A stretch of 64,000 nucleotides of DNA from Patescibacteria group bacterium (GTDB lineage: Bacteria > Patescibacteriota > Patescibacteriia > JACRDY01). The DNA lies in assembly GCA_041653535.1 (NCBI GenBank), contig JBAZFH010000001.1:6052-70051 (forward strand), read 5' to 3'. The notes under the pieces are model-generated. The model was not told the origin of the DNA, ran no database searches, and saw only the letters and a program-made list of their open reading frames with translations. Position numbers and translations under genes: made by a program. Shown one piece after another: positions 8,527-59,488 of this stretch (the first letter of the stretch is position 1; every line of letters begins with the position of its first letter).

Positions 8527-8653
8527 AGAAATTAGTATATAGGTCTTAGTATGTAGGTCTTGGGGGGTACTTTAAAAATATTTAATGATTATTTTAGAAT
8601 TTTTTTAATATGGCTTGAGTATAATATGATTATTATTAATAATCCATATATTT

Positions 8654-10089: not shown

Positions 10090-10227
10090 TCATTCAAAAC
10101 GTGGGGTTCGGACCATATCCGACCCCTTTTTATTGCGAAAAATCAGGATTTTGAGTACAATTAGAATAGCTCATAGTCAGTAGCCTGTAGCTCATAGCAA
10201 TTTATTTATTTCTTAATTTTTAACTTT

Positions 10228-12613: not shown

Positions 12614-12889
12614 CGGCTAGTTGCTAGCTGCTAGCAAATAAAAAAATCCCCGAATACCTGCAGTCAAGAAATTTTTTTAGCGTAATGATCCAGCCGGAGC
12701 CGGAACACCCGCTAGAAAAATTCCATGCTTGTCGTGACCGCAGGTATTAGGGGATACTACCCACAAAATAAAACATAAGTTCTGTTCCGTGAGTAATAGA
12801 GTAGCTTAACATATCCCAATATCTTTGTCAATAGTTGTGTTTAAAAGTGGTGATAAGATATTGTTTTTTTGTTTAAAATTAGGTTTTTA

Positions 12890-14496: not shown

Positions 14497-14866
14497 GTAG
14501 GAGCTAAAAATAAAGCTTGTCCACGATTTTAAATATATGCGTAAAAATAACCTAATCAATAACGTTCTAGGCGGCTAGCAAGGAAATTTTTGTGCTATAT
14601 GGGACCGCTTAGAAGGCGGTTTTTTTAGTCAGCAGTAGAAAGCGAGTATTTTAACCTTTAGTGACTAAATGAAAATGACTCAGAGTCGTTTGGTCAGTGA
14701 AGGCTAAAGAGAAACGGAAAAACCGAACTTTAACAATTGAATCGAGGAATAATATTCCAACGTCAAAATGAAAATATAATTTTCGTCAAATTACGAAGAA
14801 GTAATATTAGAGAGTCTAATTAAAAAAATACATACTAAGCAAGGATTGTGTTTTCACAATTCTTGT

Positions 14867-18098
<3,232 letters not shown>

Positions 18099-22531: not shown

Positions 22532-22814
22532 AGTTAGTATATAGTATGTAGTATATAGGGGGGGCGAGAGCCCTCCTTTTTGTGTCCATAGCTTGGCTTA
22601 TAATAGCACAAAAATTGTTTAATTTTAGGCAAATTATAGGTTAAATGATTTACAAGAATAGCGTTTTATGCTATGATTACATATTAATTTACAGGAGGTC
22701 ATTTACAATACAATTAACCAAAAATTTTTTGAGATGGGCGTTTTGGATACTATTTTTAGTATTTAGAACGCTCGTCTCAATTCCGGGACGGCATCTATGG
22801 AAAGGAGGGCGATC

Positions 22815-37331: not shown

Positions 37332-40148
37332 ATGGCGAACCAAATAAAGATTCGTGGCGCTCGGGTGAATAACCTCAAAAATATTAATGTTGATATTCCC
37401 AAAGATAAATTGGTGATTATTACCGGTTTGTCAGGATCTGGTAAATCGTCGCTTGCTTTTGACACGATTTACGCCGAAGGTCAGCGTCGTTACGTTGATT
37501 CTCTTTCTTCGTATGCGCGGCAGTTTATGGGAGTGATAGAAAAGCCGGATGTCGACTCTATTGAAGGTTTGTCGCCTGCTATTGCTATCGATCAGCGTAG
37601 TGTTAGCCATAATCCTCGCTCGACCGTTGGTACTGTGACTGAAATATATGATTATTTACGTTTGTTGTTTTCCAAACTCGGTCATCGATTTTGTCATCAG
37701 TGCGGCAGTGAGGTAACTAAGCAGACTTTAGAGGAAATAACTAGCATGGTTTTGAAGCTGGAAGCCGGTGAATATTATTTGGTCGCCCCGGTGGTAAAAA
37801 GTCAAAAAGGGGAACAAAAGAAAGTGGTTTCTGGTATTACCAAATCTGGGTATCTTGGACTAGTCGTCGATGGGCAGTTTTTTCATGTTGATCAGCTGTC
37901 AACCATTAAAATAGATAAAGCGGAAAAACACGATGTTGATATAGTTTTATCCAAAATAAAAATCAACGGTGACAATCAAAAGATTTCCGAGCTAGTAAAA
38001 GTGGCGCTCGATCTTGGTAACGGTGAGCTGAAAGTAAAGAAGGTAAATGGCGGAGATTTTACCGGCAAAGAATATAATTTTTCTCAATATTATACTTGTC
38101 CCAGTTGTGGCATCACTCTTTCGGAAATCGAGCCGCGATCTTTTTCTTTTAACTCACCGCAAGGAGCGTGCGCTGCCTGTGCCGGTCTAGGTGTTAAAAT
38201 GGAAGTTGATCCTGATTTGATAATTCCTAATCGTAAATTAACTATTGCTGAAGGCGCGATTAAGCCTTGGGTGCGCATGGTTGGTGGTCAGACCGGTCAA
38301 TATAAGCTACTCGAAGCCATGTCTAAGGAAAATGGTTTTTCGATTCATCAACCTTTGGAGAAAATAAAAGCTGACCAAATCGATATTATTTTGTATGGTA
38401 CGGGCGCCAAAAAATATCTTATTGGGTCGCAAGAGCAAGTATATGAAGGAGTGATCCCGCAGCTTGAACGCCGCTATCGCGAAAGCGATTCTGATTTTAT
38501 GCGTTCGGAAATCGAAGGTTATATGCGTTCAATGATTTGTCCTTCTTGTCATGGTCAGCGTCTAAAAAAAGAAAGTTTGTCCGTCAAAGTCGGTGGACTG
38601 AATATCGCCCAAGTGGTGGCACTTAATATTAATGACGCAGGAGTTTATTTTAAGGGATTGGAAAAATTATTTGATAAAAAAGAAAAACAGATCGGTAGTC
38701 AGATTATCCGCGAGGTATTAGCCCGTATTGATTATATTAAGGGTGTCGGGTTAGATTATTTGGCACTTGATCGTAGCGCTGGTACGCTATCCGGTGGTGA
38801 AGCGCAAAGGATTCGTCTGGCTACTCAAATGGGGTCGGGATTATCCGGCGTTATCTATATCCTCGATGAACCGTCGATTGGTCTGCACCAAAAAGACAAT
38901 GCTAAACTAATTAAAACCCTTAAAGAGCTGCGCAATATTGGCAATTCAGTAGTGGTTGTTGAACACGACGAAATGATTATTCGCGAAGCTGACGAAATTA
39001 TAGACATCGGTCCCGGCGCCGGCACTTATGGCGGACACGTGATCGCCCAAGGCACGCTCAAAGAAATTTTAAGCAACAAAAAATCTTTAACCGGACAATA
39101 TCTATCCGGTAAGAAGAAAATTGATACCCCTAGCGAATACCGTAAGGGTAATGGCAAGTCTATCGAGATTGTCGGTGCTAAGGCGTTTAATCTCAAAAAT
39201 ATCAGTGTTAAACTGCCGCTTGGCAAATTTGTTTGCTTCACCGGCGTTTCCGGTTCAGGTAAATCAACTCTAATGACTGAGATCCTTGCCAAGGCTTTAT
39301 CCCGACATTTTTATCGCGCCAAAGATTTGCCGGGAGAGCATAAAGAAATAAAAGGTTTAGAAAATATTGACAAGGTGATTTCCATCGATCAATCGCCAAT
39401 TGGTCGGACACCGCGCAGTAATCCGGCTACCTATACCGGTGTTTTTACTTACATCCGTGATTTGTTTACCCAATTACCGGAAGCCAAGATTCGTGGTTAT
39501 GATGCCGGTAAATTTAGTTTTAATGTTAAGGGCGGACGTTGCGAATCCTGTGGTGGCGACGGACTCGTTCGTATCGAAATGCAGTTTTTGTCGGACGTTT
39601 ATGTTCTCTGTGACGAATGTCACGGTCAGCGTTACCAAAAAGAAATACTAGAAGTACATTTCCGCAATAAAAATATCGCTGATATCCTAGACATGACTGT
39701 CGAAGAAGCTAAATACTTTTTTTCCGATAAACCGATTATTGCCGAAAAACTCAGCACGCTATCAGAAGTCGGACTGGGCTATGTTAAGCTTGGTCAGTCA
39801 GCCACTACACTGTCTGGCGGTGAAGCTCAGCGTGTCAAACTGGCAACCGAGCTAGCTCGCCGTTCGACTGGTAACACTCTGTATATTCTCGACGAGCCGA
39901 CCACCGGTCTTCATTTTGATGATATTAAAAGACTGCTCGCTGTTTTGCAGCGTTTGGTAGATAAGGGAAACACCGTACTGGTTATAGAGCATAATTTGGA
40001 AGTGATAAAATCTGCCGACTGGGTGATTGATCTTGGACCAGAGGGTGGCGACAAAGGCGGAGAAATAGTAGCGCAGGGAACGCCGGAAGATATTGCCAAA
40101 GAAAAAAGAAGTTTTACCGGACAATACCTGAAGAGCGTTTTGGATTAG
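37332..40148 (+). CDS. uvrA: excinuclease ABC subunit A
   Basis: Two ABC ATPase modules ([17 protein letters not shown] x2) and zinc-finger CxxC pairs. ATG at 37332 ([15 protein letters not shown]). Confidence 0.9.
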
Positions 40149-40149
40149 T

Positions 40150-40330
40150 AGTTAGTGGTTAGAATTTTTATAAGCTGGTGGGTGACTGCCGGCTTTTTAG
40201 TTGGGGAAACACGTCCGGCACCCCCTCTGCCTCCCCCTTGGCAGGGGGAGAATTATAAGACAGACTCCGTCTAGTCTCCTCCCCTGCTAAGGGGAGGAAC
40301 AAGGAGGGGTGCTGGACGTGTTCGTTCTAA
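40150..40330. repeat. roughly 180-bp GC-rich imperfect palindrome with two internal G/C hairpins
   Basis: aacacgtccggcacccc ... ggggtgctggacgtgtt outer stem. Inner hairpins ctccccc-ttggca-gggggag and cctcccc-tgctaa-ggggagg. Resembles the GC-rich element family below. Confidence 0.6.
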
Positions 40331-43909: not shown

Positions 43910-44901
43910 TTATTTTGTTGTATTTAAGTAATTTTTCAGATCCGTAGGTAAATCGGAGGAAAACTCCTGCCATTGATTATCTGAGTCGTAAAATCCAAGT
44001 AGGTGAGAATGCAAAAATAGTCTGGGTGGAGGAGCGGTTTCTTTTTTTTGTTTTCTGATCGTGTAGAGTTTGTCGCCGGCCAGCGGGTGTCCCAGGGCTT
44101 TAAAATGAACGCGGATCTGATGAGTGCGACCGGTTTTAATCGTAACTCGAACCAAAGTATAGTTGATAAAGTATTTTACTACATGGTATTCGGTCAGCGC
44201 ATTTTTCCCTTCTTGGCTTAGTGGTCTTGCCGCCATTGTTCCAGCAGATGATCGAGCGATAGAAAAATTTATTGTTCCAGAGTCTTTTTCCATTTTGCCT
44301 CGGACTAGAGCGAGATATTCTTTTTTTACCTTGCGGTCGGCAAATTGACTTTTGAGAAAAATAAACATTTTTTTGTTACGGGCGACAACTAGCAGGCCAG
44401 AAGCATCTTTGTCGATACGATGAACAATGCCCGGGCGATTTTTGTCCTCACCTATTTTTTTTACCTCGGGATATTTTGTCGCTATCTTTTGGATTAGTGT
44501 TCCGGTTAGGTATTTGCTGTCAGGATGAACAGGAATACCAGATGGTTTATTGATTACTAAATAATCGTCGGTTTTGGCGATGATGTCTAGGTTGAAGGGA
44601 GGGAGTTTGGAGCTGGTAGGTGGTAGTTGGTAGTTGGGGACTTGGAAATTGGAACAATTTTTTTATCGATGGTTATCTTGTCGTTGGTTTTCAGAAATTC
44701 GTGGACTGATGGAATCTCGCCGTTAACTAAAACCGCGCCTGATTTGATCAGTTTCTGAACTTGGGCGCGAGGTAGGTCAAGTTTGGTGGTTAGCAAAACA
44801 TCAAGACGGTTATTGTTATCTTTAGATTTTACGGTTATTGATTTCATTATAGTAGTGGGTAGTGGGTAGTGGGTAGTGATATTTTTAATAATTTTACTCA
44901 C
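43910..44901 (-). pseudogene. RluA-family pseudouridine synthase (S4 domain + catalytic domain) interrupted by a frameshift inside a heptanucleotide tandem repeat
   Basis: S4 domain (RLDVLLTTKLDLPRAQVQKLIKSGAVLVNG) lies in one frame and ends at the stop at 44587. The catalytic domain (DIIAKTDDYLVINKPSGIPVHP ... TGRTHQIRVH) is open in another frame from 44662 to 43910. The overlap contains the (TAGTTGG)n tract at about 44610-44637. Confidence 0.6.
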
Positions 44902-44922
44902 TAATCAATACTCGCTACACTG

Positions 44923-46410
44923 TTAAGAAGTCAGTTTTTTAATAAATTTCATCGCTTGTTGTTTTGTCTTAACCCTTCCTCTTAATTGTTCCTCACGTAA
45001 CTTAGCAATTGCTCTACCAACGTGTGGCCCGGGTTTGATTTTGAGTATTTTAATAATCTCATTACCGTCGAGAATCGGAGCGGGCAATGTTTTTTTGTTT
45101 TTAGCTAGCTTGGCAAGAACAGCTATTCTTCTACGCAGAGCGGCGGAGTAGCTGATAAATTTTTCACCTTTGGCAGGAACAGTAGCCATTTCATCGGCGT
45201 GAATCAGTTTAATTAAATCCTGCCCCGCTGGAGCAATAAAAAAATATTTTTCTATGGTAGTGCTTTTCATTTCGGCAATGCGGCCATGAACGGCGATCAT
45301 GTGTTTGGCGATCAGCCAAAAAACTTTATCCGGGTCGCAATCAATATCAGCATCTTTGTAGGCAGATAGCTTTAGCCGATCGCATATTTCTTTGGCTTTT
45401 TTGGCGCCGACTAAGTCGTGTTCGTTAAAACGAATACGATCACTGCCGTTTTTTTCCGGAGTCTGAATAGTGTAAGGTTTACCAATATCGTGAAAAAGTA
45501 GGCCAATAATAAGATTGACCGAAGGATATCCAGGGTAAAGTTTTTGAAATCTTTTGCTAGTCAAAGTTTTTAGGGCTAAGACAGTGTGCTGCCAGACGTC
45601 GCCTTCGCTATGCCAATTGTTTGGCTGCGGACATTTTTTTATTTTTAGTAATTCTGGCATCAGTTGTTTGATAAAACCAGCTTGGTCGAAAAGTCCTAGT
45701 GCTAGTACTGGCGCGGCATAGAAAGCTTTGAGCAAATCTTTGGCAATAGTTTCGCGAGGAACCACAAAATCATTGCCATTTTTTTTGTTGATTTTTGGCG
45801 CCAGTTTTTTTATGGTTGCCCAGGTATTTTTTTCAATAGCAAAATCTAGCTGGCAGGCAAAGCGGATAGCGCGTAGCATCCGACTATAATCTTCGGCAAA
45901 ACGGACGGAGGGTTTACCAACGGCGCGAATGATTTTTTTTACCAAATCCTTTTGGCCGGCAAAAGGATCGACGATTTTACCGCTGATCAGGTCTAGAGCC
46001 ATGGCGTTGACAGTGAAGTCACGCCGAGAAAGGTCTTCTTCGATTTTCAGTCGGTAGTTGGTCTGGACTTTGAAATCGCGATAAGCTCCGCTGCGGTCGA
46101 TGGAATATTCGGTGCGGGGAAGAGCAATGTCAATAGGAGATGGGAACTGGGAACTAGGATCTGGTAGTTTTGGGTTGAACTTAAAAACACCGAAAGATTT
46201 GCCGACTAGGTCAACTTTGCCATTTTTTCTGAGAAAAGCTTCAAGGGGTTTAGCGGGTACGCCGCGGACGAGCAAATCGTAGTCTTTGATTTTTTTGTTC
46301 AGTAGCAGGTCGCGGACCGCTCCGCCAACCAAAAATACTTCCGCAGCAGGAAAAGTGCGGGTTACCTTTTGAGCTAATTGGATTATTGATTTGTCTATTT
46401 TATTTAGCAT
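44923..46410 (-). CDS. cca: CCA-adding tRNA nucleotidyltransferase with HD domain
   Basis: GGAVRD head motif and LLFHDIGKP HD motif. Start is probably MLNKIDK. Confidence 0.8.
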   Translation of the reverse strand: MLNKIDKSIIQLAQKVTRTFPAAEVFLVGGAVRDLLLNKKIKDYDLLVRGVPAKPLEAFLRKNGKVDLVGKSFGVFKFNPKLPDPSSQFPSPIDIALPRTEYSIDRSGAYRDFKVQTNYRLKIEEDLSRRDFTVNAMALDLISGKIVDPFAGQKDLVKKIIRAVGKPSVRFAEDYSRMLRAIRFACQLDFAIEKNTWATIKKLAPKINKKNGNDFVVPRETIAKDLLKAFYAAPVLALGLFDQAGFIKQLMPELLKIKKCPQPNNWHSEGDVWQHTVLALKTLTSKRFQKLYPGYPSVNLIIGLLFHDIGKPYTIQTPEKNGSDRIRFNEHDLVGAKKAKEICDRLKLSAYKDADIDCDPDKVFWLIAKHMIAVHGRIAEMKSTTIEKYFFIAPAGQDLIKLIHADEMATVPAKGEKFISYSAALRRRIAVLAKLAKNKKTLPAPILDGNEIIKILKIKPGPHVGRAIAKLREEQLRGRVKTKQQAMKFIKKLTS

Positions 46411-47355
46411 AACTGCCTTTATTGTATCATAGTTTGATAAATGAAAAGAGCAGGGGGGGACCTGCTCCGCGGGCAAAAACACCGACATGGCGTTTTTGTT
46501 TTTTTGGTTGCTGTTGAGAAGGCGTCGCTAGGTTTTCTCTGCCCCCCAAAACCATGTAAACACCCTCTGGCGTCCTGTCGTTCCAAATTTGATGGAATGG
46601 TTAATAGTGTTGTGACTACAGAACACAACAGGACTAGGCATGTGCACTGATGGTATTTATTATTTTATTCTTTTTTAGGAACATGTCAATATTGATTTTT
46701 AAAGTAATAAAAAGACCCGAGTCAGTTGCGGCTCGGGCTATTTTTGCGGTTAGTTTAAGGCCGAGCCAGAGGAATATGGTGAGGATACCCATAAACCTCT
46801 GGCGTACTCTATGGTGGTGCCATTTTTTGGCGATTTTTGACGGTTTTCCTCTGAACCGTCAGGCACCTGGTCGCTTTGGTAGGCGTAAAGCCGCTAGCAA
46901 ATAAATTGCCTCGGCTTGCTACGGGCATCGCCACGCCATACTCACAGCGGTCGAGAACCCCACGGGTCTGCTTGATGATCAAGAGGAGGGCAAGATCTCC
47001 GCAGGGTTCGTCGCGCGCAACGCCGCCTCGGTCACGAGATTTATACTGGGCGGTAGTTGCGAAAAAAATCAAATCAAGTTGACAGCCCAGAGACAACTCC
47101 AGCCTCTCCTCAATATTCTGACCATCTTATTAACCAATGGCAGAGAAAAGGAGGTTTTGGCATTAGTGTCCCTGGGTCCAGTGACGCAAATTAATAGCGT
47201 CAATCTGGAAAATTTAAATTGTTAATATTTAATACTTCAGCTTGATTAGGTATTATTGCACAGTAGTATTTTTTTGTCAATACTTTGGATGCAGATTCGG
47301 TAAAAGTTGGTTTAATTTGTTTAAATTTAGATAAAAATATGGGAAATATTTTATC

Positions 47356-47386
47356 CACAAAAAGAGACCTGATGGTGCAGGTCTCC
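47356..47386 (-). terminator. intrinsic terminator on minus strand
   Basis: AGAGACCTG-atggtg-CAGGTCTC hairpin followed (minus sense) by TTTTTGTGG. Confidence 0.55.
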
Positions 47387-47580
47387 TGTGGTTGAATTGT
47401 ATTAATCTTTGTGGTAATGAATTATGTGTGGTGCAATCTTGGGGGCGAAGGGCTGCACTTACGCTTCGGCGGTAAACGATATAACTAATTCCACGTCGGT
47501 TTCCTTTTTGCTGCTTGTTTCGCATGTTTGCTTAATTTATGTTTAACCGTTTTAATAACTATTGTTAACAATGGAAAGCA

Positions 47581-47608
47581 TTGATTTAAGACAAAAAGGT
47601 GATATAAT
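47581..47608 (+). promoter_or_regulatory. promoter TTGATT-16-TATAAT (extended TGn) driving the leader element + tRNA-Ile
   Basis: Near-consensus hexamers about 135 nt upstream of tRNA-Ile; the leader contains a partial copy of the GC-rich element. Confidence 0.55.
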
Positions 47609-47621
47609 GCGAGGGAATTGA

Positions 47622-47710
47622 TATTTGCGTATGCCTGCCTGCCGGCAGGCAGGTAGCTTCCACCCAAGGCGGACAGGCAGCGGTTATGCTCCTGCTTCGC
47701 GGGAGGGGTG
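47622..47710 (+). repeat. partial copy (5' module) of the GC-rich element family in the tRNA-Ile leader
   Basis: atgcctgcctgccggcaggcagg matches the family 5' module; hairpin ctcctgcttcgcgggagg. Confidence 0.5.
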
Positions 47711-47744
47711 CATTTTACAATTTGGTTTTTTACTTTTTATTTAT

Positions 47745-47820
47745 GCGCGTGTAGCTCAGCGGTTAGAGCATCGCCCTTATAAGGCGGGGGTCGATGGTTC
47801 AAATCCATCCACGCGCACCA
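47745..47820 (+). tRNA. tRNA-Ile (anticodon UAU)
   Basis: Acceptor GCGCGTG/CACGCGC, anticodon stem TCGCC/GGCGG with loop CTTATAA (U33, anticodon TAT, A37), T-loop GGTTCAAATCC, encoded CCA. Confidence 0.75.
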
Positions 47821-47977
47821 GTGTGTTTTGTTTAGCAGCTCGGTTTTTACCTAATAATGTCGATCGATGGTTTGTCCCTTCGGGACATCTCCCGTAGGGA
47901 GACAAATCCATCCACGCGCACCATTCTTCGCTCGCTAGAGTGAAGAATGTCCTCCGTAGCTCGAAGAGCGAAGGAGG

Positions 47978-48002
47978 ACGAAACGTTGTTCGTCTCTTTT
48001 AG
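47978..48002 (+). terminator. intrinsic terminator after tRNA-Ile unit
   Basis: GACGAAacgttgTTCGTC followed by TCTTTTA. Confidence 0.55.
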
Positions 48003-48067
48003 TTCCGTCGCGAGCTTCGAATGGCGCGGCCATATTCTATTTATTAGGATTTCAGTATATTAAATTA

Positions 48068-48096
48068 TTGACAATGGTCGTTTTTGGCTTTATAAT
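48068..48096 (+). promoter_or_regulatory. consensus sigma70 promoter TTGACA-17-TATAAT upstream of tRNA-Val locus
   Basis: Perfect hexamers. Confidence 0.65.
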
Positions 48097-48263
48097 CAGC
48101 AGCACTAATATTTAGTAGTTATTAATTTGTAATTTGAAATTATCTTTTGGGCGTATAGCTTCCACCTACGCCCTCATTACATTCGGGCTTCGGCGGACAA
48201 GCATCTGGTATTTCACCATTTGCCTGCCAGTCGAAGCTCGCCAGTAATGGCGAGTGTAGATTG

Positions 48264-48317
48264 GGGCGGTTAGCTCAGTTTCTGCCAGAGGCAGACCCGC
48301 CTTCGGCGGGGGTTAGA
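48264..48317 (+). pseudogene. tRNA-Val 5' fragment (GGGCGGTTAGCTCAG) fused to a 34-nt GC double-hairpin insert
   Basis: 15-nt exact duplicate of the 5' end of tRNA-Val at 48564, followed by tttctgccagaggcagacccgccttcggcggggg + ttaga. The same 48-nt junction recurs at 48683-48730. Confidence 0.6.
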
Positions 48318-48563
48318 TTGTTTTTTTATGTCGGGAATATATGTTTTAAAAAGTTTAAAAAACGGTAAAAGATATGTGGGTAGTACTCGTAAAGATGTAG
48401 ATTTAAGGTTGAAAGAGCATAATTATGGGTCAAATGTTTGGACTAGGCAAAACGGACCTTTTAAATTAATTTATAAAGAAGGTTTTACTGACTATAAAGA
48501 TGCTTTGAAAAGAGAAAGATTTTTGAAGTCAGGCCAAGGCAGAAAATTTTTAGATAGTATTTT
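48279..48563 (+). mobile_element. roughly 285-bp insertion carrying a GIY-YIG nuclease gene, flanked by a 15-bp direct duplication of the tRNA-Val 5' end
   Basis: Direct repeats gggcggttagctcag at 48264-48278 and 48564-48578. The insert begins with two GC hairpins (ctgcc-aga-ggcag; cccgcc-ttc-ggcggg). Confidence 0.5.
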
Positions 48564-48573
48564 GGGCGGTTAG
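48328..48573 (+). CDS. small GIY-YIG nuclease domain protein (YhbQ/UPF0213-like)
   Basis: GIYVLKSLKNGKRYVGST ... RLKEHN ... motif. The last codons and stop overlap the first 10 nt of tRNA-Val. Confidence 0.65.
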   Translation: MSGIYVLKSLKNGKRYVGSTRKDVDLRLKEHNYGSNVWTRQNGPFKLIYKEGFTDYKDALKRERFLKSGQGRKFLDSILGG

Positions 48574-48640
48574 CTCAGCTGGTTAGAGCGTTACATTGAC
48601 ATTGTAAAGGTCACAAGTTCGAATCTTGTACCGCCCACCA
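48564..48640 (+). tRNA. tRNA-Val (anticodon GAC)
   Basis: GGGCGGTTAGCTCAGCTGGTTAGAGCG, anticodon loop TTGACAT, T-loop AGTTCGAATCT, encoded CCA. Terminator hairpin cagagactatagaagtctctg + T-run follows at 48645-48671. Confidence 0.85.
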
Positions 48641-48682
48641 AAGGCAGAGACTATAGAAGTCTCTGTTTTTTGTTGTATAAAA

Positions 48683-48783
48683 TTAGCTCAGTTTCTGCCA
48701 GAGGCAGACCCGCCTTCGGCGGGGGTTAGAGCGTTACATTGACATTGTAAAGGTCCGTGGTTCGAGTCCACGTATGCCCACCA
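48683..48783 (+). pseudogene. 5'-truncated second tRNA-Val(GAC)-like gene, D-arm onward, with the same 34-nt insert in its D-loop
   Basis: ttagctcag + 34-nt insert + ttagagcgttacattgacattgtaa ... ggttcgagtcc ... tatgcccACCA. No matching 5' acceptor strand (GGGCATA) upstream. Confidence 0.55.
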
Positions 48784-49325
48784 AAAGAACACCAGTGATG
48801 GTGTTTTTTTGTTTATTTAAAAAAGCCGACATTGCTATGTGCATCGTCGGCTATTGTTTTGATGCTAATCTTCGTCATCGTCTTCTAGCCCGTCAGAGGG
48901 CGGAAAGATTTCTATTGGATGATCTTCATTGTCTAGTTTTATGGCTAGCGCTAGGAGCATCAAGGCGTTTCTGGTTCTGGGGCTGCGACCGCCTCCGAAA
49001 TAAGTTCGGAAACGTAATACTGGTCCATGATGACCGTCTGTGCATACCCAGGCGTCACCGTCTTCCGAAAACTGGACTATTATTTGTCCTTTTGCCGTTC
49101 CGTCATTATCATCATGAAGTCGGGCGAATGTTTCTTTCGACGATAGGTCTGGAATCTAAAAGGGGTTGTTTAGAACACGATAGGCGTCTTTGATTAATCT
49201 TGCCGTTCCCGGTTCCGGTGGCATTTGCATTTCTCCTTTTGAGGTTGGTTTTTAAAATAAGCAGTGTTTTTTTGGTGCGTTAATAAATGCTAGCAAAAGG
49301 TCGTGTGAATAGCAAATGGGTATTT

Positions 49326-49354
49326 TTGACAAAAAGGCTTAACATTGTTAATAT
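49326..49354 (+). promoter_or_regulatory. promoter TTGACA-17-TAATAT
   Basis: Upstream of the glycoside-hydrolase gene. Confidence 0.5.
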
Positions 49355-49409
49355 TTATAGTCCATTGAAAATAAATAACTGTCGGAAATACATAGAAAGG
49401 GAGGGCACT

Positions 49410-50486
49410 ATGTCGCAAATTGAAAAAAAATTATTTGCTGCAACTGCGATTTTGCGTCGTTGTATTGGCAAGGAAGGTATCTGGGCCGACTCGACTCGTT
49501 ACCAGTATCAGTGCTGGACGCGTGATTTTGTATTGGCAGTGTTGGAAGTTTTGTTGCAATCGCAGCGAGACGACCTAATCCGAAAACATCTTCACGGCAT
49601 TGCCTTTCGGCAACAACCAAACGGTCAAATTCCGATCCTTTTTTTGGAAAATGAGTTTTGCTGGCTCTGGGAAAAAATCAAGCGCAGTATCAAAAATCGT
49701 AAAGTTTCTTTTATGCTGCGTCGGTACTTCACCGGACATCTGTGGGATCTTACTCCCGGGACAAGGGACTCGGAAATCATGTTTCTTGTCGGCATGTATG
49801 AATATGCCAAGCAGTCCGGCGACAACAGTTTGGTTGCCGAGCACAATGTCGGTTTGTACCGAGCGCAGACCTACATTGAAAAATTTTTAATGGAAAACGG
49901 TCTGGTCGTCGGTTGCGATTGGCGCGACACCATGGAGCGTGAGCTTGGCGACAAACCGCTACTGACCAACAATTCTTTGATGTATCGCGCTTATAATCTG
50001 ATGGGCGAAAAAGAAAAAGCCGATCGGTTGCGTGCGAACATCAATTCAGTGTTGTGGGACGGGCAGCGCTATCTGGATTATCCGGATAGCGAGCGCTTTG
50101 ATCCGCTCGGTGGCGCGTTGGCCGTACTGTATGATGTGGCTTTGCCGGAACGTTATGCCAGTATCATCGAAGGGTTCCGGTCGGTTGATACCGATCGCGG
50201 TGTAACCATTCAATGTCGGCATAATCCGATGGTTGCCGAAGAAGCCAAAGTGATCAACCGCACCAACGGCGTGGTGATCTGGCCATTTGTTCTCGGGTTC
50301 ACCGTCTTGGCTTTGATCAAGATGGGTGAGAAAAAGTTGGCCAAGGCGCAGTTCGACAAACTGGTCGCGCTTGACGGTTTCCGCGAGTGGTACGACCCAG
50401 CGACTGGCAAGGGTTATGGCGCCAAAGAGCAGCTTTGGTCCGCGGCGCTTTATTTGCGGGCACTGAGAGCGATTCGCAATATGTGA
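49410..50486 (+). CDS. (alpha/alpha)6-barrel glycoside hydrolase, glycogen-debranching/GH63/GH15-like
   Basis: RBS AAAGGGAGGG; start MSQIEKK. Motifs CWTRDFVLAVL and QLWSAALYLRA typical of six-hairpin glycosidases. GC about 52%. Confidence 0.55.
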   Translation: MSQIEKKLFAATAILRRCIGKEGIWADSTRYQYQCWTRDFVLAVLEVLLQSQRDDLIRKHLHGIAFRQQPNGQIPILFLENEFCWLWEKIKRSIKNRKVSFMLRRYFTGHLWDLTPGTRDSEIMFLVGMYEYAKQSGDNSLVAEHNVGLYRAQTYIEKFLMENGLVVGCDWRDTMERELGDKPLLTNNSLMYRAYNLMGEKEKADRLRANINSVLWDGQRYLDYPDSERFDPLGGALAVLYDVALPERYASIIEGFRSVDTDRGVTIQCRHNPMVAEEAKVINRTNGVVIWPFVLGFTVLALIKMGEKKLAKAQFDKLVALDGFREWYDPATGKGYGAKEQLWSAALYLRALRAIRNM

Positions 50487-50500
50487 AAAAGGAAGAGAAT

Positions 50501-50746
50501 ATGTTCGAAATAACCAAGCCGATCGACACGGCAGCTGATACGCAAGGAGAGCTTCAGGTTTTTTCCGCAAGCCCTGAAGGAAGCGAAGTTGACCCCGGTA
50601 GCATTAGTCACGTTATTGGTAGTGACGAAGTGAGTATTCGGTCGAACGTCGCTTTCGGTGGATCGATTTCCGTGAAGGGACGGGAAAGTTTGAAACTTTT
50701 GAGGGATGCCTTGGTCAGTATATGCAAGACTGAGGATATTAAGTAA
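50501..50746 (+). CDS. hypothetical small protein
   Basis: RBS AAAAAGGAAGAG + ATG at 50501; 81 aa. Confidence 0.45.
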   Translation: MFEITKPIDTAADTQGELQVFSASPEGSEVDPGSISHVIGSDEVSIRSNVAFGGSISVKGRESLKLLRDALVSICKTEDIK

Positions 50747-50858
50747 GGATATTAAGTAATAAACAATCAACCAAAACCGGTGAGATGTAATATTTCGTCG
50801 GTTTTTTGTTTTAGGTGGCGCGCGGCTGCGTGGCTCGCAGCAAGGGGAAATACTGTTC

Positions 50859-50879
50859 CCAGCTACCAACTACCAGCTA
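50859..50879 (+). repeat. heptamer tandem repeat (CCAGCTA CCAACTA CCAGCTA) upstream of promoter
   Basis: Three tandem 7-nt units ending 22 nt before the -35 hexamer TTGACA at 50902. Confidence 0.7.
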
Positions 50880-50901
50880 CTAACGTGGGGACAACCCTTT
50901 C

Positions 50902-50930
50902 TTGACATAATCGGTAAAGTTAAGTAAGAT
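50902..50930 (+). promoter_or_regulatory. promoter TTGACA-17-TAAGAT
   Basis: Drives the small ORF at 50957. Confidence 0.5.
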
Positions 50931-50956
50931 ACAAAATTAACAGTTTATATAATTTT

Positions 50957-51112
50957 ATGAAAATTAATTGGCCAAAATACAACCTAATCGCCTACACCAA
51001 CCGCTTTGTTAGCGGAGCTTTTGGCATGCTTGTGGTTTTTCTAACCGCAATTGCTGCTGGCAGCTCTCTGAGGGCAGAATATTTTTGGCGCTTTTATTTT
51101 CTAATGACTTAA
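50957..51112 (+). CDS. candidate 51-aa hydrophobic peptide with its own promoter and terminator
   Basis: MKINWPKYNLIAYTNRFVSGAFGMLVVFLTAIAAGSSLRAEYFWRFYFLMT. No SD. Terminator hairpin atatcctgctctaacgcaggatat + T-run at 51137-51168. Confidence 0.25.
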   Translation: MKINWPKYNLIAYTNRFVSGAFGMLVVFLTAIAAGSSLRAEYFWRFYFLMT

Positions 51113-51230
51113 TTTGTCTTATATATAAAAACCTCGAAATATCCTGCTCTAACGCAGGATATTTTTTAACCACCTCTCAAAAGCCACGAACTTTAACAAT
51201 TATATAGACCTTACCTAAAGGAGGTAGACC

Positions 51231-53060
51231 ATGTCGGACTGGGAAGACCAAACCGCAGGCAAAGACAGGAATCTGCATTTTTTTGTCACCGGAATGAGAA
51301 CTCTTTGGGATTTGCTCGGGCAAGAAAAAGGAAGGCTGACGGCGCTACTCGGCTGGCAAGTATTCCTTTCGTCGCTTACCCTGCTTTTTCCTTATTTACT
51401 GAAACTGGTTTTTGACCAGTTACCGCTGGTACTGGCCGGCACTGCTTCGATTGGATATATTGTTCAACTGATAGTAGCGATGTTTGTCATCAAAACCTGC
51501 GCCCAATTTTTGCATCATTTTTCCAAGGAGAAAAGATTTGCCAACAGTGTAATCTATCTGGAAAACTGGTGGCCGGTAATGGCGCAACAAAAACTGCTTG
51601 ATCTATCGCTTGGTTACCATGAAAAAGAAAACACCGGCAAAAAAATCGCTCGCATCAATAAAGGCTGTGACAAGCTGGTAGAAATTCTCATGCATCTGTT
51701 TTGGGGATTTTTGCCGCAGCTGTTTTTTCTGGTAGTGAACCTGGCTATCGTGTTAATTATTGATTGGCGACTGGGACTAGCTTTTGCTCTACCGTTTATC
51801 CCGGCAGCGATCATTAATATCAAAGCCTTTGATCGTTTTTCCGCAGACTGGGAAGAATGGGAAAGGAAAAAAGAAGTCTCGACCGGGTTTTTCTGCCAGT
51901 CGATAATCAACGTCAACACTGTTCAGAGTTTTGTTCAGGAAAAAGAAGAAGAAAGCCGTCTATGCGAAGTGCGTCAAAGCATGGAAAAATTGGACATCAA
52001 AGTTAATCGTCGGTTGCAAAAATGGCTTTTTGCCGTTGGTTCGATATTGCACCTGTGTTTTGTACTGACCATCGCTCTCGGCGTTTATCTGGTGATAAAC
52101 AAACAGACAAGTGTCGGTACATTGGTTTATCTGGTGGCCACCGGCACCGTTACTATCGATTCGCTTTGGGAGACGATCAACGTCTACATGCGAATCATGC
52201 GCAATCTAGTGGCTGTTCGCCGGATGAAAGAATTGATCGATGAACCGGTGGATATTGTTAACGGCGCTGAAGCCAAAACACTCGACGAGTTTGTTGGCGA
52301 TGTCGCCTTCGAGCAAGTAAACTTTGTTTATCCGGGCAAAACCGAGCCGGTGCTTGATGACTTTAACTTGAGTATTGCTGCCGGACAAATGGTGGCTCTG
52401 GTAGGAAAAAGCGGTGAAGGCAAAACCACAATCGCGCGACTAGTGTCTCGGATGTATGATCCGATCAATGGGCAGATAACCCTAGATCACAACGACATTC
52501 GCGATCTAGATTTGTACTGGTATCGCCGACTGTTTGCAGTAGTGCAGCAAGATGTCGACATTTTTGACGGTACGCTTTTCTACAACATCAGTTATCCGTG
52601 CGCTGGCGCTACTGAGGAGCAAGTGCTGGAAGCTTTGTCTGCCGCTCACCTAGGAGTGGTACTAAAAGACGCCAAGCGTTTTCCCGATGGCCTACAAACT
52701 CAAGTAGGCGAGCGAGGAGTACGGCTTTCTGGCGGTGAACGTCAGCGTGTCGGTATTGCTCGCGCCTATCTAGCGCTACTTTGCGGCGCAAGGATACTGA
52801 TCCTCGACGAAGCAACGTCGAGTCTGGATAGTGAAGCAGAGAGGGCGATCCAGACAATGCTTGACAAACTTCGTTCCAGGCAAGGTATTACTGTAATTGC
52901 TATTGCCCACCGGCTGTCAACTATCCAGCGCGCTGACAAAATCTGCGTGATCAGCGGCGGGACGATTACCGAGCAAGGCGATCATCAACAACTGATGAAA
53001 CAAAACGGACTCTATTCACATCTGGTTGAGCTGCAACAGCTCGGTGATTTGCGAGAATAG
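51231..53060 (+). CDS. ABC transporter, fused permease/ATPase exporter (MsbA/MdlB-like)
   Basis: Six-TM domain + Walker A GKSGEGKTT, signature LSGGERQRVGIARA, Walker B ILILDEATS. RBS AAAGGAGG. Confidence 0.85.
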   Translation: MSDWEDQTAGKDRNLHFFVTGMRTLWDLLGQEKGRLTALLGWQVFLSSLTLLFPYLLKLVFDQLPLVLAGTASIGYIVQLIVAMFVIKTCAQFLHHFSKEKRFANSVIYLENWWPVMAQQKLLDLSLGYHEKENTGKKIARINKGCDKLVEILMHLFWGFLPQLFFLVVNLAIVLIIDWRLGLAFALPFIPAAIINIKAFDRFSADWEEWERKKEVSTGFFCQSIINVNTVQSFVQEKEEESRLCEVRQSMEKLDIKVNRRLQKWLFAVGSILHLCFVLTIALGVYLVINKQTSVGTLVYLVATGTVTIDSLWETINVYMRIMRNLVAVRRMKELIDEPVDIVNGAEAKTLDEFVGDVAFEQVNFVYPGKTEPVLDDFNLSIAAGQMVALVGKSGEGKTTIARLVSRMYDPINGQITLDHNDIRDLDLYWYRRLFAVVQQDVDIFDGTLFYNISYPCAGATEEQVLEALSAAHLGVVLKDAKRFPDGLQTQVGERGVRLSGGERQRVGIARAYLALLCGARILILDEATSSLDSEAERAIQTMLDKLRSRQGITVIAIAHRLSTIQRADKICVISGGTITEQGDHQQLMKQNGLYSHLVELQQLGDLRE

Positions 53061-53217
53061 ATAGTTCAATCAACCAAAGCCCCTGGCAGCAATGTCGGGG
53101 GTTTTTAATAGCGCATAGCCGATAGTCCTCCTTCGCCAAGGCTGCGGCGTACAGGCTCATAGCTGATAGGGGATAAAAAAATAACGCCGGTAATTTTTGG
53201 TTACCGGCGTTGATGTG

Positions 53218-53799
53218 TTAAGGCGTGGTTCTATAGAGAGGGTCGATGATCTGTAGTTCTTTGTTGGCGTGCCAGAAGTGTTCGAGAGATCCTTTGTGTC
53301 TATTCCACCACTCAACTTCTTTTGTTGGCTCAATGAACTCTGGCCAAAGGAATGGAATGTGTATGGAGCTGAGAGCTACGCCTGTGACATCGTTGCTATC
53401 GGCGCGTATCCGTATTAATTTGTTGCCATCAAAGGTATGGCCATAGAGTTTCATGATAATACGGATCGACACGTCTTCGTAATGCGGCGCTTTAGCTTTT
53501 TGGATGGAGTAATCCAGTCCGGACTCTACGTCTGATTCTAGCTCTGTCCAAACTTCGCTGGCCTGTTTGAATAGATCTGTCCACAGATAGCGAGTATTTG
53601 GGCTAAGAAAATGCAGCTCGTAGCAAAGTTCATAAAGCCGCAGTGCTTCTGGCAGGTCGAGCAGTCGTGGACCGAGACGATGTCGTATGCGCCAGTTGCC
53701 AGCGCCGTAGGCTTTGTCGTAACCGGCCAGCCTGTCATTTTTGGCTTCGCCAAACCATCCGGGGTTAGAGACTGTTATCCAACGTTTTGACAGCTTCAT
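53218..53799 (-). CDS. hypothetical protein
   Basis: RBS AAAAGGAGCA + ATG; 193 aa with no recognisable family. Confidence 0.55.
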   Translation of the reverse strand: MKLSKRWITVSNPGWFGEAKNDRLAGYDKAYGAGNWRIRHRLGPRLLDLPEALRLYELCYELHFLSPNTRYLWTDLFKQASEVWTELESDVESGLDYSIQKAKAPHYEDVSIRIIMKLYGHTFDGNKLIRIRADSNDVTGVALSSIHIPFLWPEFIEPTKEVEWWNRHKGSLEHFWHANKELQIIDPLYRTTP

Positions 53800-53926
53800 C
53801 TGTTTGCTCCTTTTTTAGTTTTGGTATTTCAAGACAGTATTCTATTTTAGCGGGGGAGTAATATTATGTCAATAATTGTTGGACAAATGTTGACGAAATC
53901 CTGACAACAGTTTACACTGAGTCTAT

Positions 53927-54700
53927 ATGGAAATACAATCAATGCTCAAAAAAATAGGATTAAATGACAAAGAGGTTAAAGTTTATTTAACCTTATTTGA
54001 AAATGGGGCAACCAAACCGACGGTTTTGGCAAAGATGACAAAGTTAAATCGAGCCACTTTATATAATGTAGCTCAAGGGTTAATTTCCAAAGGAATTGTT
54101 TCCGGAGATTTGAGTGGCAAGTCGCTTGTTTTTACGCCACTGCCACCTAGTGATTTAGAAAAGATTCTTGCTCCAGCTAAAAGAGATTTGGAGGAGAAGG
54201 CGAGTTTAATCGAAGAGGCGGTTAGCGAGCTTAACTTAATAGTTAGCGGCAAGCAATATCCTATACCCAAAATTAGGTTTATCGAAGAAAATAATTTAGA
54301 AAAATTTCTTTTTGATAATTTAGAAAAATGGCAGGATGAAGTGATTGGTTCCGATGGTGTCTGGTGGGGCTACCAAGATCATACCTTTGCCGCTAGCTTT
54401 GAAAAGTGGCTGGACCAAACTTGGCGAACAACTCAAAGTAAAAATAGTCATTATCAGGCGCAAGTTTTTAGTAATGTGTCGGAAACCGAAAGCAAGCTGA
54501 AACGTAAATATGCCAATCCTAAACGACAAGTTAGGTTTTTAGAAAATACCAGTTTTACTGCTACCACTTGGGTTTGTGGCGATTATTTGATTATGATTAT
54601 GACGCAGCAACACCCATATTATCTGATAGAGATTCATGACCAGTTTTTGGCTCAAAATACCAAGGAAGTTTTTAAGAAACTTTGGGAGCTATCGAAATAG
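53927..54700 (+). CDS. TrmB-family transcriptional regulator
   Basis: N-terminal winged HTH (LNDKEVKVYLTLFENGATKPTVLAKMTKLNRATLYNVAQGLISKGIV). Confidence 0.7.
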   Translation: MEIQSMLKKIGLNDKEVKVYLTLFENGATKPTVLAKMTKLNRATLYNVAQGLISKGIVSGDLSGKSLVFTPLPPSDLEKILAPAKRDLEEKASLIEEAVSELNLIVSGKQYPIPKIRFIEENNLEKFLFDNLEKWQDEVIGSDGVWWGYQDHTFAASFEKWLDQTWRTTQSKNSHYQAQVFSNVSETESKLKRKYANPKRQVRFLENTSFTATTWVCGDYLIMIMTQQHPYYLIEIHDQFLAQNTKEVFKKLWELSK

Positions 54701-54900
54701 CTTTTAGCACCTTTGTTGTCATCCTGAACCCTTCGTCCCGCGTCGCGGGACTCAGGATAAACTCCGTTAAGGATCCCTCTTGATTGCCCACGACGGAAAA
54801 ATACTAATATTCACGTAATCATCGACGATTAAGTTTTATTTAATATTCGCTTTCATTTCTTTTCTGGAGGGATTCTTCGCTCCGCTCAGAATGACAATCC

Positions 54901-54921
54901 CCAACTACCAACTACCAACTA
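54901..54921 (+). repeat. heptamer tandem repeat (CCAACTA)x3 occupying the -35 region of a TATAAT promoter
   Basis: ccaactaccaactaccaacta + cc + gtatgc + TATAAT (54930-54935) + 8 nt + ATG at 54944. Possible leaderless transcript. Confidence 0.7.
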
Positions 54922-54943
54922 CCGTATGCTATAATTATTCCAT

Positions 54944-57393: not shown

Positions 57394-57452
57394 CAATCAA
57401 TGAACCGTCTCGCTACGCAGTGGGACGGTTTTTCTTTTTTCCACGACTGCTC

Positions 57453-57660
57453 TCATGCCGCCTGCCTGCCGGTAGGCAGGGGTAGGCAGATACCCAGCCG
57501 CAGAGCCCTGCAGCTGGGTAACCAAAGATTTTCGGGGGTGGCATAAGCCCGAGTTTTATAGCACCTTAAGGTTCTTTAAACCCGCCTCGCCCCTTCCGCT
57601 CACTTACGTTCGACTCTCGGGGTTCGGCTCGGGGCAACGCCACCCCCGAACCCCCGATGC
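57453..57660 (+). repeat. GC-rich structured element, family copy A
   Basis: 5' module ctcatgccgcctgcctgccggtaggcaggg; central hairpin ccagccgcag-agccc-tgcagctgg; gattttcgggggtggcataagcccgag; caccttaaggtt; 3' cggggttcgg...ccgaacccccg hairpin. Confidence 0.7.
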
Positions 57661-57801: not shown

Positions 57802-59052
57802 ATGAGAGGTGCTAACGCTGCGGTACATATCCATGACGTTGTTGCGTCTTACCCTCTGCAAACAGTGCCGGGGCTAGGACGCTACGCTTGGCGATCACTA
57901 CTTCTCAAAGGAGCAAAGGTTGTCGGGCGTCATCCCAGTTTGAACGACTATCTTGCTTTTCTTAAGGAGGTGAAGGTTGGTAATGGCGGGGAAGTACTAA
58001 CTGCTTATGACGATCATCTTTACGACGTTGTTTTGGGCGATCGTAACTTACAGCGCGAGATTGATCGTTTGCTGTGCGTTGAAGATCGAACACTGCGACT
58101 ATTTGCCATCACCGAAAATGATGAAAAATTTTTGCGGTTGACCGGTTGGCAGAAAAAATCCGAGGTTTTTGCTCCGCCGCTACAGCTTTCGCTACGGGCA
58201 AATGACAAGGCATTTTTACGCCGGCTGGCGGTAGAAAAAGGAATCGGAAATATTTTTCCGCCCTTTGTTATCGTTGCAACAGTTGACGGTCTGGCCCGAG
58301 CGGTGGAGAGGATGTCTCGTGTCAATGACAGTGACTTTATCGTGGTCAAAGCAACCAATCTGGCCAGCGGTGAAGGCATGACTTTCACCAGTGAAAGAGA
58401 AAAGGCGATTGCCTTTGGTCGCAAGCTTTTTGCCAATGGTCAAAAAGAGGTGATTGTCGAAGCCGGCTACGACTCTGACAGTTATAGTATGCAATGGGAG
58501 CTGCGCCCACGCGATTTTCGCTTTCTCGGTGCGTCAGCTCAAATCATGAGTCATCACGGTAAAGTGCATGAAGGTAATATCGTGTCTTCGTCTTTACGGC
58601 AACTACCCGGTATTACCGAAAGAGAAATTGCTCGGATGCAGGGTCGCGCTTATCCACTGATCGATTGGTTTTGGCGGCAAGGACACCGCGGTATCTTTGG
58701 AATTGATTTTATCAAAACCAAGAAAGAACGTCGGCATCGTTTGCTACTGCTGGAATCCAATGCTCGTGTCACTGCCAGTACTTATCCTTTTTCGGTCGGT
58801 CGACAGCTTGCCGATCGCGGCATCGTTGAATACGGTATTGCCGCGCGAAATTGCTATCCATCAAGTCAGATGAATTGGGATGGACTGGTGAAGTTTTTGG
58901 GTAGCGATATTTTCGACGGAGAGAAAGGGATCTTACCTTATATTCCTAACTGTTTGCCGGAAAAAGTCGGGCTGATGGCGATCGCACCAGACGCTCCGGC
59001 TGCCGAAGATATGCTGGCGCACTACCACTGGGCGCTAGCACGTAATACGTAA
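57802..59052 (+). CDS. ATP-grasp domain protein (paralog B)
   Basis: LLESNARVTASTYPFS parallels CEVNARVTAPWYPWE of paralog A. Tandemly duplicated SD acaggaggctat x2 before ATG. Confidence 0.55.
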   Translation: MRGANAAVHIHDVVASYPLQTVPGLGRYAWRSLLLKGAKVVGRHPSLNDYLAFLKEVKVGNGGEVLTAYDDHLYDVVLGDRNLQREIDRLLCVEDRTLRLFAITENDEKFLRLTGWQKKSEVFAPPLQLSLRANDKAFLRRLAVEKGIGNIFPPFVIVATVDGLARAVERMSRVNDSDFIVVKATNLASGEGMTFTSEREKAIAFGRKLFANGQKEVIVEAGYDSDSYSMQWELRPRDFRFLGASAQIMSHHGKVHEGNIVSSSLRQLPGITEREIARMQGRAYPLIDWFWRQGHRGIFGIDFIKTKKERRHRLLLLESNARVTASTYPFSVGRQLADRGIVEYGIAARNCYPSSQMNWDGLVKFLGSDIFDGEKGILPYIPNCLPEKVGLMAIAPDAPAAEDMLAHYHWALARNT

Positions 59053-59188: not shown

Positions 59189-59377
59189 CCTCATGCCGGG
59201 CCGGCAGATACTTTCTGCAAACAGAAAGTATCCAAAGATTTTCGGGGGTGGCATAAACCCGAGTTTATAGCACCTTAAGGTTTTCTTACCCCGCCTCAAC
59301 CCATTCCGCTCGCCCCGCCAAGGCGGGGCTCGACTCTCAGGGTTTCGGCTCGGGGCAATGCCACCCCCGAACCCCCG
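59189..59377 (+). repeat. GC-rich structured element, family copy B
   Basis: ctcatgccgggccggcag; central perfect hairpin gatactttctg-caaa-cagaaagtatc; gattttcgggggtggcataaacccgag; caccttaaggtt; 3' tcggctcggggcaatgccacccccgaacccccg. Confidence 0.7.
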
Positions 59378-59488
59378 TAATTTTAGTATTTTAATATTTT
59401 TTTAAAACACCTGCCCTCGCGCAGATTTGTCGTCCTTAATTTTTCGATTTAAAAAACCGTCCTACTGTATAGCGGGACGGTTGGTTTT

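Follow-up and report, generated by a model that had tools for sequence, protein, structure and literature searches.

Heptanucleotide repeat arrays in a Patescibacteria genome and a one-unit length difference between a split and an intact rluD gene

We analysed a 64 kb stretch of DNA (the window) from the genome of a Patescibacteria group bacterium (contig JBAZFH010000001.1, positions 6,052 to 70,051), in which short tandem arrays of 7-nucleotide (nt) units had been noticed upstream of promoter-like sites and inside rluD, a gene for a pseudouridine synthase of the RluA family. Comparison with a second assembly revealed that the array within rluD exists in two lengths. Gain or loss of a single unit at this tract occurs in nature and decides whether rluD is an intact or a split gene. 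The four tracts that had been noticed are probably members of a lineage-typical, genome-wide family of heptanucleotide simple sequence repeats that is prone to slippage, with the polymorphism in rluD toggling the gene.

In the window, rluD lies on the minus strand and is divided between two reading frames. The S4 domain is encoded by an open reading frame (ORF) of 86 amino acids (aa) at 44587-44847 (MKSITVKS...LPST*; NCBI MFA5358242.1), with its stop codon at 44587-89, and the frame of the catalytic domain (PseudoU_synth_2) is open throughout 43910-44662. A search of the catalytic frame for start codons revealed no ATG, GTG or TTG before the ATG at 44368, which lies downstream of the HRIDKDASG motif that we take to hold the catalytic aspartate of RluA-family enzymes. 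Since there is no canonical start upstream of this motif, the window allele would yield no active enzyme by ordinary initiation. The heptamer tract of the gene (CCAACTA CCAACTA CCACCTA CCAGCTC; 44610-44637, minus strand) is located in the linker between the two domains. A reading of the window from its sequence alone (the sequence-only reading) had predicted that one additional unit would fuse the S4 and catalytic halves, and insertion of CCAACTA in silico has exactly this effect.

The same fusion was found in an independent assembly. Contigs of the Logan run SRR18595300 were recovered via an exact-sequence look-up of window proteins and, with one JGI contig added, they span 26.4 kb of the window, in which 11 heptamer tracts lie. 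Over 4567 nt, the only difference between Logan contig SRR18595300_576294 (L238) and the window is an added CCAACTA in the contig, and the rluD tract thus differs in unit number between the assemblies (three CCAACTA units in L238, two in the window at 44617-44637), which is the heterogeneity that the sequence-only reading had proposed to look for. The rluD of L238 is called as a single gene of 314 aa with both the S4 and the PseudoU_synth_2 domain, and its product corresponds residue for residue to the fusion built in silico by adding one unit. Across the 26.4 kb compared we detected no substitution and only one indel, the 7 nt of the rluD tract. None of the ten other arrays covered, both promoter-proximal ones included, differs between the assemblies. 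The NCBI and JGI records, probably a single assembly, both contain the split form. Both halves of the split gene are undegraded and show about 59% identity to intact orthologs.

To place the tract among other repeats, we carried out an unbiased scan of the window with all 64 trinucleotides at periods of 4-12. CTA (TAG on the other strand) at period 7 gave the top signal with 21 triple occurrences compared to 0.18 expected, and no other combination of trinucleotide and period exceeds 6 occurrences. This signal corresponds to 11 arrays of 3-5 units each. They include the four CCARCTA/CCCACTA tracts of the sequence-only reading, which are real but had not been recognised as part of a wider set. 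Among periods 6-12, only period 7 has near-perfect arrays of at least three units in the window. Although the genes on the list used here make up 77% of the window, all but one of the 11 arrays lie entirely or largely outside them. The units of the imperfect arrays share only the CTA, as in CTATGAG CTACAGG CTACTGA CTATGAG. The arrays occur in both orientations, at 5' ends and at 3' ends of genes and flanking the gene of a 23S rRNA intervening-sequence protein (IVP). All four CCARCTA-type tracts are CTA-sense relative to their genes, and most of the other arrays are TAG-sense at gene 3' ends. A search with the two-unit pattern CCARCTACCARCTA, allowing at most one mismatch, revealed 7 matches compared to 0.03 expected, a number reached by none of 100 shuffled sequences.

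Analysis of the three closest rluD loci of relatives (L098, L100 and L102; 52 kb in total) showed the same preference, with 28 arrays of period 7 compared to one of period 8 and none of period 9. Their units are genome-specific (ACTCTGG, ATTCCYC, CTACCGG, ACACAGC, AGCTGCG, TTCGCTG, CCAGATA), and several of the arrays lie within genes, namely those for valyl-tRNA synthetase (ValRS) and pyruvate:ferredoxin oxidoreductase (POR), cca and rluD. CTA at period 7 is also the top signal in L098 and appears in the Patescibacteria loci L021, L032 and L075, whereas the arrays of L100 and L102 are equally dense but have no CTA core. As the gene order cca, rluD, gmk and rplS is kept in the relatives, individual sites can be compared. 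In all close relatives, the linker between the S4 and catalytic domains of RluD contains an in-frame heptamer array, but the unit differs from genome to genome: (CYAGATA)4 in L098, CTACCAG CCACCAG... in L100, and (ACACAGC)4 followed by (AGCTGCG)4.7 in L102. Similarly, the same surface loop of cca contains (CTACCGG)4 in L102, and in the window it contains a degenerate tract derived from CTACCAG (CTACCAG ATCCTAG TTCCCAG TTCCCAT; 46141-46169, minus strand); the latter encodes KLPDPSSQFPSP and had been recognised in the sequence-only reading. Repeated expansion and contraction would be expected to leave arrays of this kind, which occupy the same sites and are internally uniform but differ from one species to the next. 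Independent contig pairs of the relatives (L098/L099, L100/L101, L102/L103/L104) revealed no differences in repeat length.

Two further observations concern these loci. In L102, perfect in-frame arrays of 4-5 units are found in conserved genes (24-57, 1406-1443, 18048-18080 and 8766-8802), with (ACTCTGG)n twice in ValRS and once in a POR subunit, and (CTACCGG)4 in cca. In L098, the closest relative, the whole spacer between rluD and a kinase gene (1143-1214) consists of two inverted CTAG-heptamer arrays (CTAGTAG CTAGGGA CTAGTAT CTAGGGA ... CTAGCTC CTAGCTA CTAGCCC CTAGCTA), which extend from the stop codon of rluD to a point 5 nt upstream of the following ATG.

The four CCARCTA-type tracts were all found where the sequence-only reading had placed them, and each is listed by Tandem Repeats Finder. 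On the plus strand, (CCAACTA)3.3 (54901-54923, 100% matches) occupies the -35 region of a promoter-like site of an M20 peptidase gene. The TATAAT of this site (54930-54935) is preceded by TG (54927-28) to form an extended -10 element (TGcTATAAT, 54927-54935), inspection revealed no usable -35 hexamer, and the ATG at 54944 follows 8 nt past the -10 box; the array, the -10 box and its distance from the ATG are as described earlier. The imperfect array CCAGCTA CCAACTA CCAGCTA CTAACGT (50859-50884, plus strand) is preceded by a terminator-like hairpin (50773-50805) and is located, again in line with the earlier description, about 22 nt upstream of the TTGACA of a TTGACA-17-TAAGAT promoter-like site (50902-50930). 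The third tract, a perfect (CCCACTA)3.9 (44852-44878, minus strand), lies in the 75-nt spacer between cca and rluD and ends 5 nt upstream of the rluD ATG (44847), where no Shine-Dalgarno sequence was found. It had been taken as coding (ITTHYPLPTT), but this reading exists only in a mechanically GTG-extended ORF. The true start of rluD is the ATG at 44847 (MKSITVKS...), as in the NCBI record of the 86-aa S4 protein and in the Logan gene call. Because cca and rluD abut or overlap in the relatives, without a spacer, the spacer with its CCCACTA array is specific to the lineage of the window.

The sequence-only reading had further suggested that changes in unit number alter promoter spacing. We found no support for such a switch: the 54901, 50859 and 44853 arrays have only 3-4 units, and they are identical between the assemblies, as are seven more. 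Since members of the family are also present at gene 3' ends and around the IVP gene, adjacency to a promoter is not evidence of promoter control, and an array near a promoter is expected where such elements are confined to short intergenic spacers. We found no evidence that any of the ten unvarying arrays has a regulatory role, and those close to promoters are static members of the heptamer family. As a separate observation, two elements resembling repetitive extragenic palindromes (REP) lie between the TrmB-family and M20 genes (54718-54760 and 54868-54896; GTCATCCTGA...TCAGGATAA and the reverse complement of GTCATTCTGAGCGGAGCGAAGAATC). The second sits directly before the CCAACTA array, and two Logan contigs end and begin inside it with an overlap of 29 nt.

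The remaining arrays are distributed over the window. Two of them form the arms of an inverted repeat around ORF 8654-9025, which encodes the IVP (PF05635). The left arm (8532-8567) contains the CTA array CTACATA CTAAGAC CTATATA CTA (8533-8556, minus strand), which ends 6 nt upstream of the tRNA-Glu gene. The right arm (9029-9064; CCACCTA AATACCA GATACTA AGACCTA TATACTA, plus strand) lies to the right of the IVP ORF, with its CTA array at 9047-9063. With 36-nt arms that are 81% complementary, this is the longest inverted repeat of the window, and folding as RNA predicted a long-range stem enclosing the ORF (z = -4.2). The IVP ortholog of L102 (2819-3335; 54% identical) is flanked likewise, by (GAGGAAT)n and (ATTCCYC)n. 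The locus looks like an intervening-sequence-type cassette whose stem is made of the host genome's own heptamer family. The array of the left arm also contains a TATACT hexamer resembling a -10 box, which stops 7 nt short of the mature 5' end of tRNA-Glu (region 8526-8556); transcription could start at or next to this end, possibly giving a leaderless tRNA.

The array CTATGAG CTACAGG CTACTGA CTATGAG CTA (10167-10197, minus strand, TAG-sense on the plus strand) ends 30 nt upstream of the hsp20 ATG. Inspection by eye of 10120-10228 revealed a promoter-like site (TTGCGA-17-TACAAT) upstream of this array; an hsp20 transcript from this site would have the (UAGNNNN)5 array at its very 5' end and then an A/U-rich leader in which we saw no Shine-Dalgarno sequence. 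The array at 12603-12634 (CTAGCAG CTAGCGG CTAGTTG CTAGCTG CTAGC; units CTAGNNG) overlaps the stop codon of a VanW-like gene and is self-complementary with 12-bp arms, and no strand can be assigned to it. CTATATA CTACATA CTATATA CTA (22535-22558, minus strand, TAG-sense on the plus strand) lies just past the stop codon of a gene for a phosphoglycerate kinase-fructose-bisphosphate aldolase (PGK-FBA) fusion, between this stop and a hairpin (seen by eye) with a T-run. In CTAACCA CTAACTA CTA (40146-40162, minus strand) the first TAG on the plus strand is the uvrA stop codon. Finally, CTATCGG CTATGCG CTA (53109-53125, minus strand) is located between convergent genes for an ATP-binding cassette (ABC) transporter and a 193-aa protein and adjoins terminator-like hairpins.

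The explanation that we favour, and consider likely, is that all these tracts belong to one family of slippage-prone repeats typical of the lineage. Such arrays would form, lengthen and shorten through slipped-strand mispairing of neighbouring identical units, and they would persist where a compact genome tolerates them, that is, in intergenic spacers, at gene ends and in non-conserved protein linkers. As 7 equals 1 modulo 3, the frame shifts with every unit that is added to or removed from a gene. Three perfect CCAACTA units would give the normal 314-aa RluD, and two would give an 86-aa S4 peptide and leave the catalytic domain untranslatable. The tract would in this way act as an ON/OFF frameshift switch, both alleles of which were found on otherwise identical DNA. 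The OFF allele would be expected to entail the loss of the helix-69 pseudouridines.

Heptameric repeats are over-represented in bacteria. Their families comprise many arrays of typically 2-6 units scattered over one genome, mainly in intergenic DNA and often directly ahead of start codons or as inverted pairs (PMC4692102, PMC4679880). Described families include the short tandemly repeated repetitive (STRR) sequences and GGGGAYT of Calothrix and Nostoc, and GGGAATC of Xanthomonas, which occurs mostly with four units and also as inverted pairs (PMC4692102). In marine Beggiatoaceae, TAACTGA is present in 2-6 copies, mostly directly upstream of start codons without a ribosome-binding site, and contains stop codons in one orientation (PMC4679880). 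The units of these families are lineage-specific, and their function and origin are unexplained (PMC4692102, PMC4679880). The window arrays are likewise short, dispersed, mostly intergenic, near starts or gene ends and in part arranged as inverted pairs, and, as in TAACTGA, one of their orientations carries stops in all three frames. Short dispersed arrays of period 7 far above other periods were found both in the window and in the relatives. In the length and number of their units and in their dispersal and location, the window arrays thus match the known kind of heptameric repeat, whereas their sequence is different: none of their units (CCARCTA, CCCACTA, CTAGNNG, CTAYATA) is identical to GGGAATC, GGGGAYT or TAACTGA. 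They differ furthermore in belonging to the phylum Patescibacteria, in sharing only a 3-nt CTA core instead of most of the unit, and in the presence of arrays inside conserved genes, one of which is length-polymorphic. A literature search revealed no report of such heptamer arrays in Patescibacteria.

For repeats with a demonstrated effect on expression, two systems are informative. The neuO gene of Escherichia coli K1, carried by phage CUS-3, contains an AAGACTC repeat in its coding region whose unit number changes by slippage; only one of three phases gives the full-length protein, and 3-53 units, mostly about 20, have been found (PMC13001214). The rluD tract resembles neuO in being a 7-nt tandem repeat within a coding region whose unit number sets the frame. 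However, the neuO repeat lies near the 5' end of a phage-borne capsule-modification gene, whereas the rluD tract has 2-3 perfect units in the inter-domain linker of a chromosomal rRNA pseudouridine synthase, and switching rates have been measured for neuO, whereas the rluD difference is one between consensus assemblies. In hmw1A and hmw2A of Haemophilus influenzae, 13-38 heptanucleotide units are present in the promoter, their number alters expression, and it varies between strains (PMC2651432). These genes are the model behind the promoter idea, and the window resembles them in having 7-nt tandem repeats upstream of genes, but its promoter-proximal tracts have 3-4 units and are the same in both assemblies.

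Several points weigh against our explanation. The comparison is one of two consensus assemblies, either of which could in principle contain an assembly error. The tracts of the window are very short (2-4 units) compared to hmw and neuO, rluD is a housekeeping gene and not a typical contingency gene, and ten arrays do not vary between the assemblies. Moreover, plain slippage leaves the conservation of CTA alone unexplained, which may point to a further constraint, for instance a factor that binds the arrays.

A stronger claim, which we regard as unlikely, is adaptive phase variation: the rluD tract, and perhaps also the cca, M20 and ABC tracts, would be maintained for fast reversible switching. 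Subpopulations could then differ, for example, in helix-69 modification of the ribosome and in translation termination. Repeats whose unit length is not divisible by three do occur within the rluD linker and in front of the rluD, M20 and ABC genes. The absence of any substitution between the ON and OFF alleles, the undegraded state of both halves of the OFF gene and the slippage-prone perfect arrays of 4-5 units in the same linker of relatives all agree with this claim. However, the rluD linker of the homolog P0043 accommodates a non-heptameric, REP-like insert (identified by eye) that is seemingly translated, which suggests a merely permissive site. The L102 arrays in ValRS, POR and cca point to a genome-wide mutational habit rather than to selection at chosen genes. 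Long perfect tracts would be expected of a phase-variable locus (about 8 to more than 20 units in proven heptanucleotide cases), but the tracts here are short and the 50859 array is imperfect, and the promoter tracts showed no variation. Of the classic phase variation put forward in the sequence-only reading, the frame-switching unit polymorphism is borne out at rluD, and variation at the ten other arrays is not. The rluD switch is either selected phase variation or a tolerated slippage allele in a housekeeping gene.

The constant CTA leads to a different proposal, which we consider rather improbable. The (CTANNNN)n arrays would be sites of a multimeric DNA- or RNA-binding protein that reads one CTA or TAG per 7 nt; they would serve as operators or RNA control sites, and changes in length would be incidental. 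It would account for the imperfect arrays in which CTA is kept and the other four positions vary, and for the recurrence of the CTA core in L098, L021, L032 and L075. Several arrays also adjoin terminator-like hairpins or lie in a likely 5' untranslated region. The motif of the HutP sites in the Bacillus subtilis hut leader is exactly UAGNNNNUAGNNNNUAG (PMC2425495), and at the level of sequence the TAG-sense arrays share its 3+4 architecture, with the pattern of three UAG at 4-nt spacing. In contrast to hut, where one operon has two sites around a terminator and a HutP gene is present, there are about a dozen arrays in both orientations. A second model is the omega ribbon-helix-helix repressor of inc18 plasmids, which binds contiguous 7-bp heptads, in direct or inverted order, upstream of promoters with one dimer per heptad. 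Its plasmid-borne operators have 7-10 units of a conserved WATCACW heptad, whereas the window arrays share the CTA core only, and the likeness lies in the heptad layout alone. Against a binding factor, the orientation of the arrays relative to flanking genes is mixed, no HutP-family protein was found among 30 window ORFs scanned (the 64 kb being a fraction of the genome), and the arrays of L100 and L102 reach the same density without a CTA core.

It is also improbable that the split rluD is a fixed pseudogene or a sequencing or assembly artefact, and that the difference between the assemblies is technical. The intact form is present in only one independent contig, and both the NCBI and the JGI record have the gene split. 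However, the difference is a clean 7-nt unit without any other discrepancy in 26.4 kb. No homopolymer run differs between the assemblies, so neither looks error-prone, and by our own reasoning a repeat collapse is unlikely because assembly k-mers are usually longer than the perfectly periodic stretch of 17 or 24 nt. In addition, each half of the gene is intact and conserved.

To a similarly small degree we give credit to a combination of a binding factor with adaptive switching, in which the CTA arrays form a genome-wide cis-element system read by a multimeric DNA- or RNA-binding factor and the linker tracts of rluD and cca are selected contingency switches that hedge ribosome- and tRNA-modification states. 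If this were true, episymbiont populations would hedge, for instance, helix-69 pseudouridylation and hence translation termination.

Expression of the split gene by programmed -1 ribosomal frameshifting or by transcriptional slippage at the A7 run (44658-44664, minus strand), which marks the 5' edge of the frame overlap, is very improbable: a one-base gain in this run (A8) also joins the frames in silico, but the 0-frame reads GAT AAA AAA ATT with no slippery heptamer of the form X XXY YYZ in register, the genes of the relatives are single-frame with no conserved A-run or slippery site, and the natural intact allele differs by a DNA repeat unit with an identical A7 run, which is therefore not the site of the observed difference.

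Four other candidate explanations of the arrays were rejected. Primase initiation, with CTA as priming trinucleotide, does not agree with arrays on both strands without consistent polarity. For G-quadruplexes, four GG runs are found only in the complement of CCAACTA, and most CTA arrays have none. A three-frame stop insulator explains neither the use of TAG only nor the antisense stops in half of the arrays. A transposon footprint is not supported, as no such element was seen, and we know of no transposable element with a 7-bp CTA target.

The window has a G+C content of 42.7% and carries a 23S-5S rRNA pair and five tRNA genes. Its 23S rRNA gene (14866-18096) is 3231 nt long compared to a model of 2925 positions, with insertions of about 300 nt, and it has no adjacent 16S rRNA gene, being followed only by the 5S gene. 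In the relative L086, a CTA-heptamer array closely precedes a sequence that looks, by eye, like the 5' portion of 23S rRNA. The PGK-FBA protein is encoded by one ORF of 763 aa (20240-22531) in which phosphoglycerate kinase and class-II fructose-bisphosphate aldolase domains are fused, and it is also called as one ORF in the independent Logan assembly. A tRNA-Ile gene with the anticodon TAT, which is unusual for bacteria, is present at 47745-47820. A weak partial tRNA match (48722-48780; Rfam 34 bits) was not called by ARAGORN and overlaps the start of ORF 48774-49193. Inverted-repeat pairs (22-31 nt, 83-87% complementary) at 57403-57650 and 59241-59482 flank an ORF of 416 aa (57802-59052), a region that may be a mobile or cassette-like element.

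Besides re-assemblies of the window's own population, no close relative was found in searchable public data, in which the nearest other organisms are about 50-64% identical at the protein level. A search of genome contigs with the RluD catalytic domain revealed a best match of 50% identity and no close representative of the species; these contigs were reused as background for the repeat statistics. Metagenome contigs searched with the neighbouring glycoside hydrolase (GH) gene contained relatives of at most 63% identity without synteny for the ABC, TrmB or M20 genes, and the promoter tracts are therefore not comparable with orthologous spacers. For the M20 peptidase, the next homolog found was 49% identical, which gave no strain-level comparison. 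Look-ups with the 521-aa cca ORF and the 86-aa S4 ORF returned no record. Searches of viral contigs with (CCAACTA)3 and (CTAN4)5CTA gave many unrelated matches and were uninformative.

The analysis places a heptamer family in an ultra-small, gene-dense genome and shows that the same protein linkers carry arrays of different units across related species. For one array, two lengths were observed, of which one leaves a conserved rRNA-modification gene intact and the other disrupts it. With these findings it becomes testable, in a concrete case, whether such repeats are only debris of mutation or generate functional heterogeneity among uncultured episymbionts. Genes that appear 'split' or 'truncated' in metagenome-assembled genomes of this kind may be repeat-length alleles rather than pseudogenes or errors.

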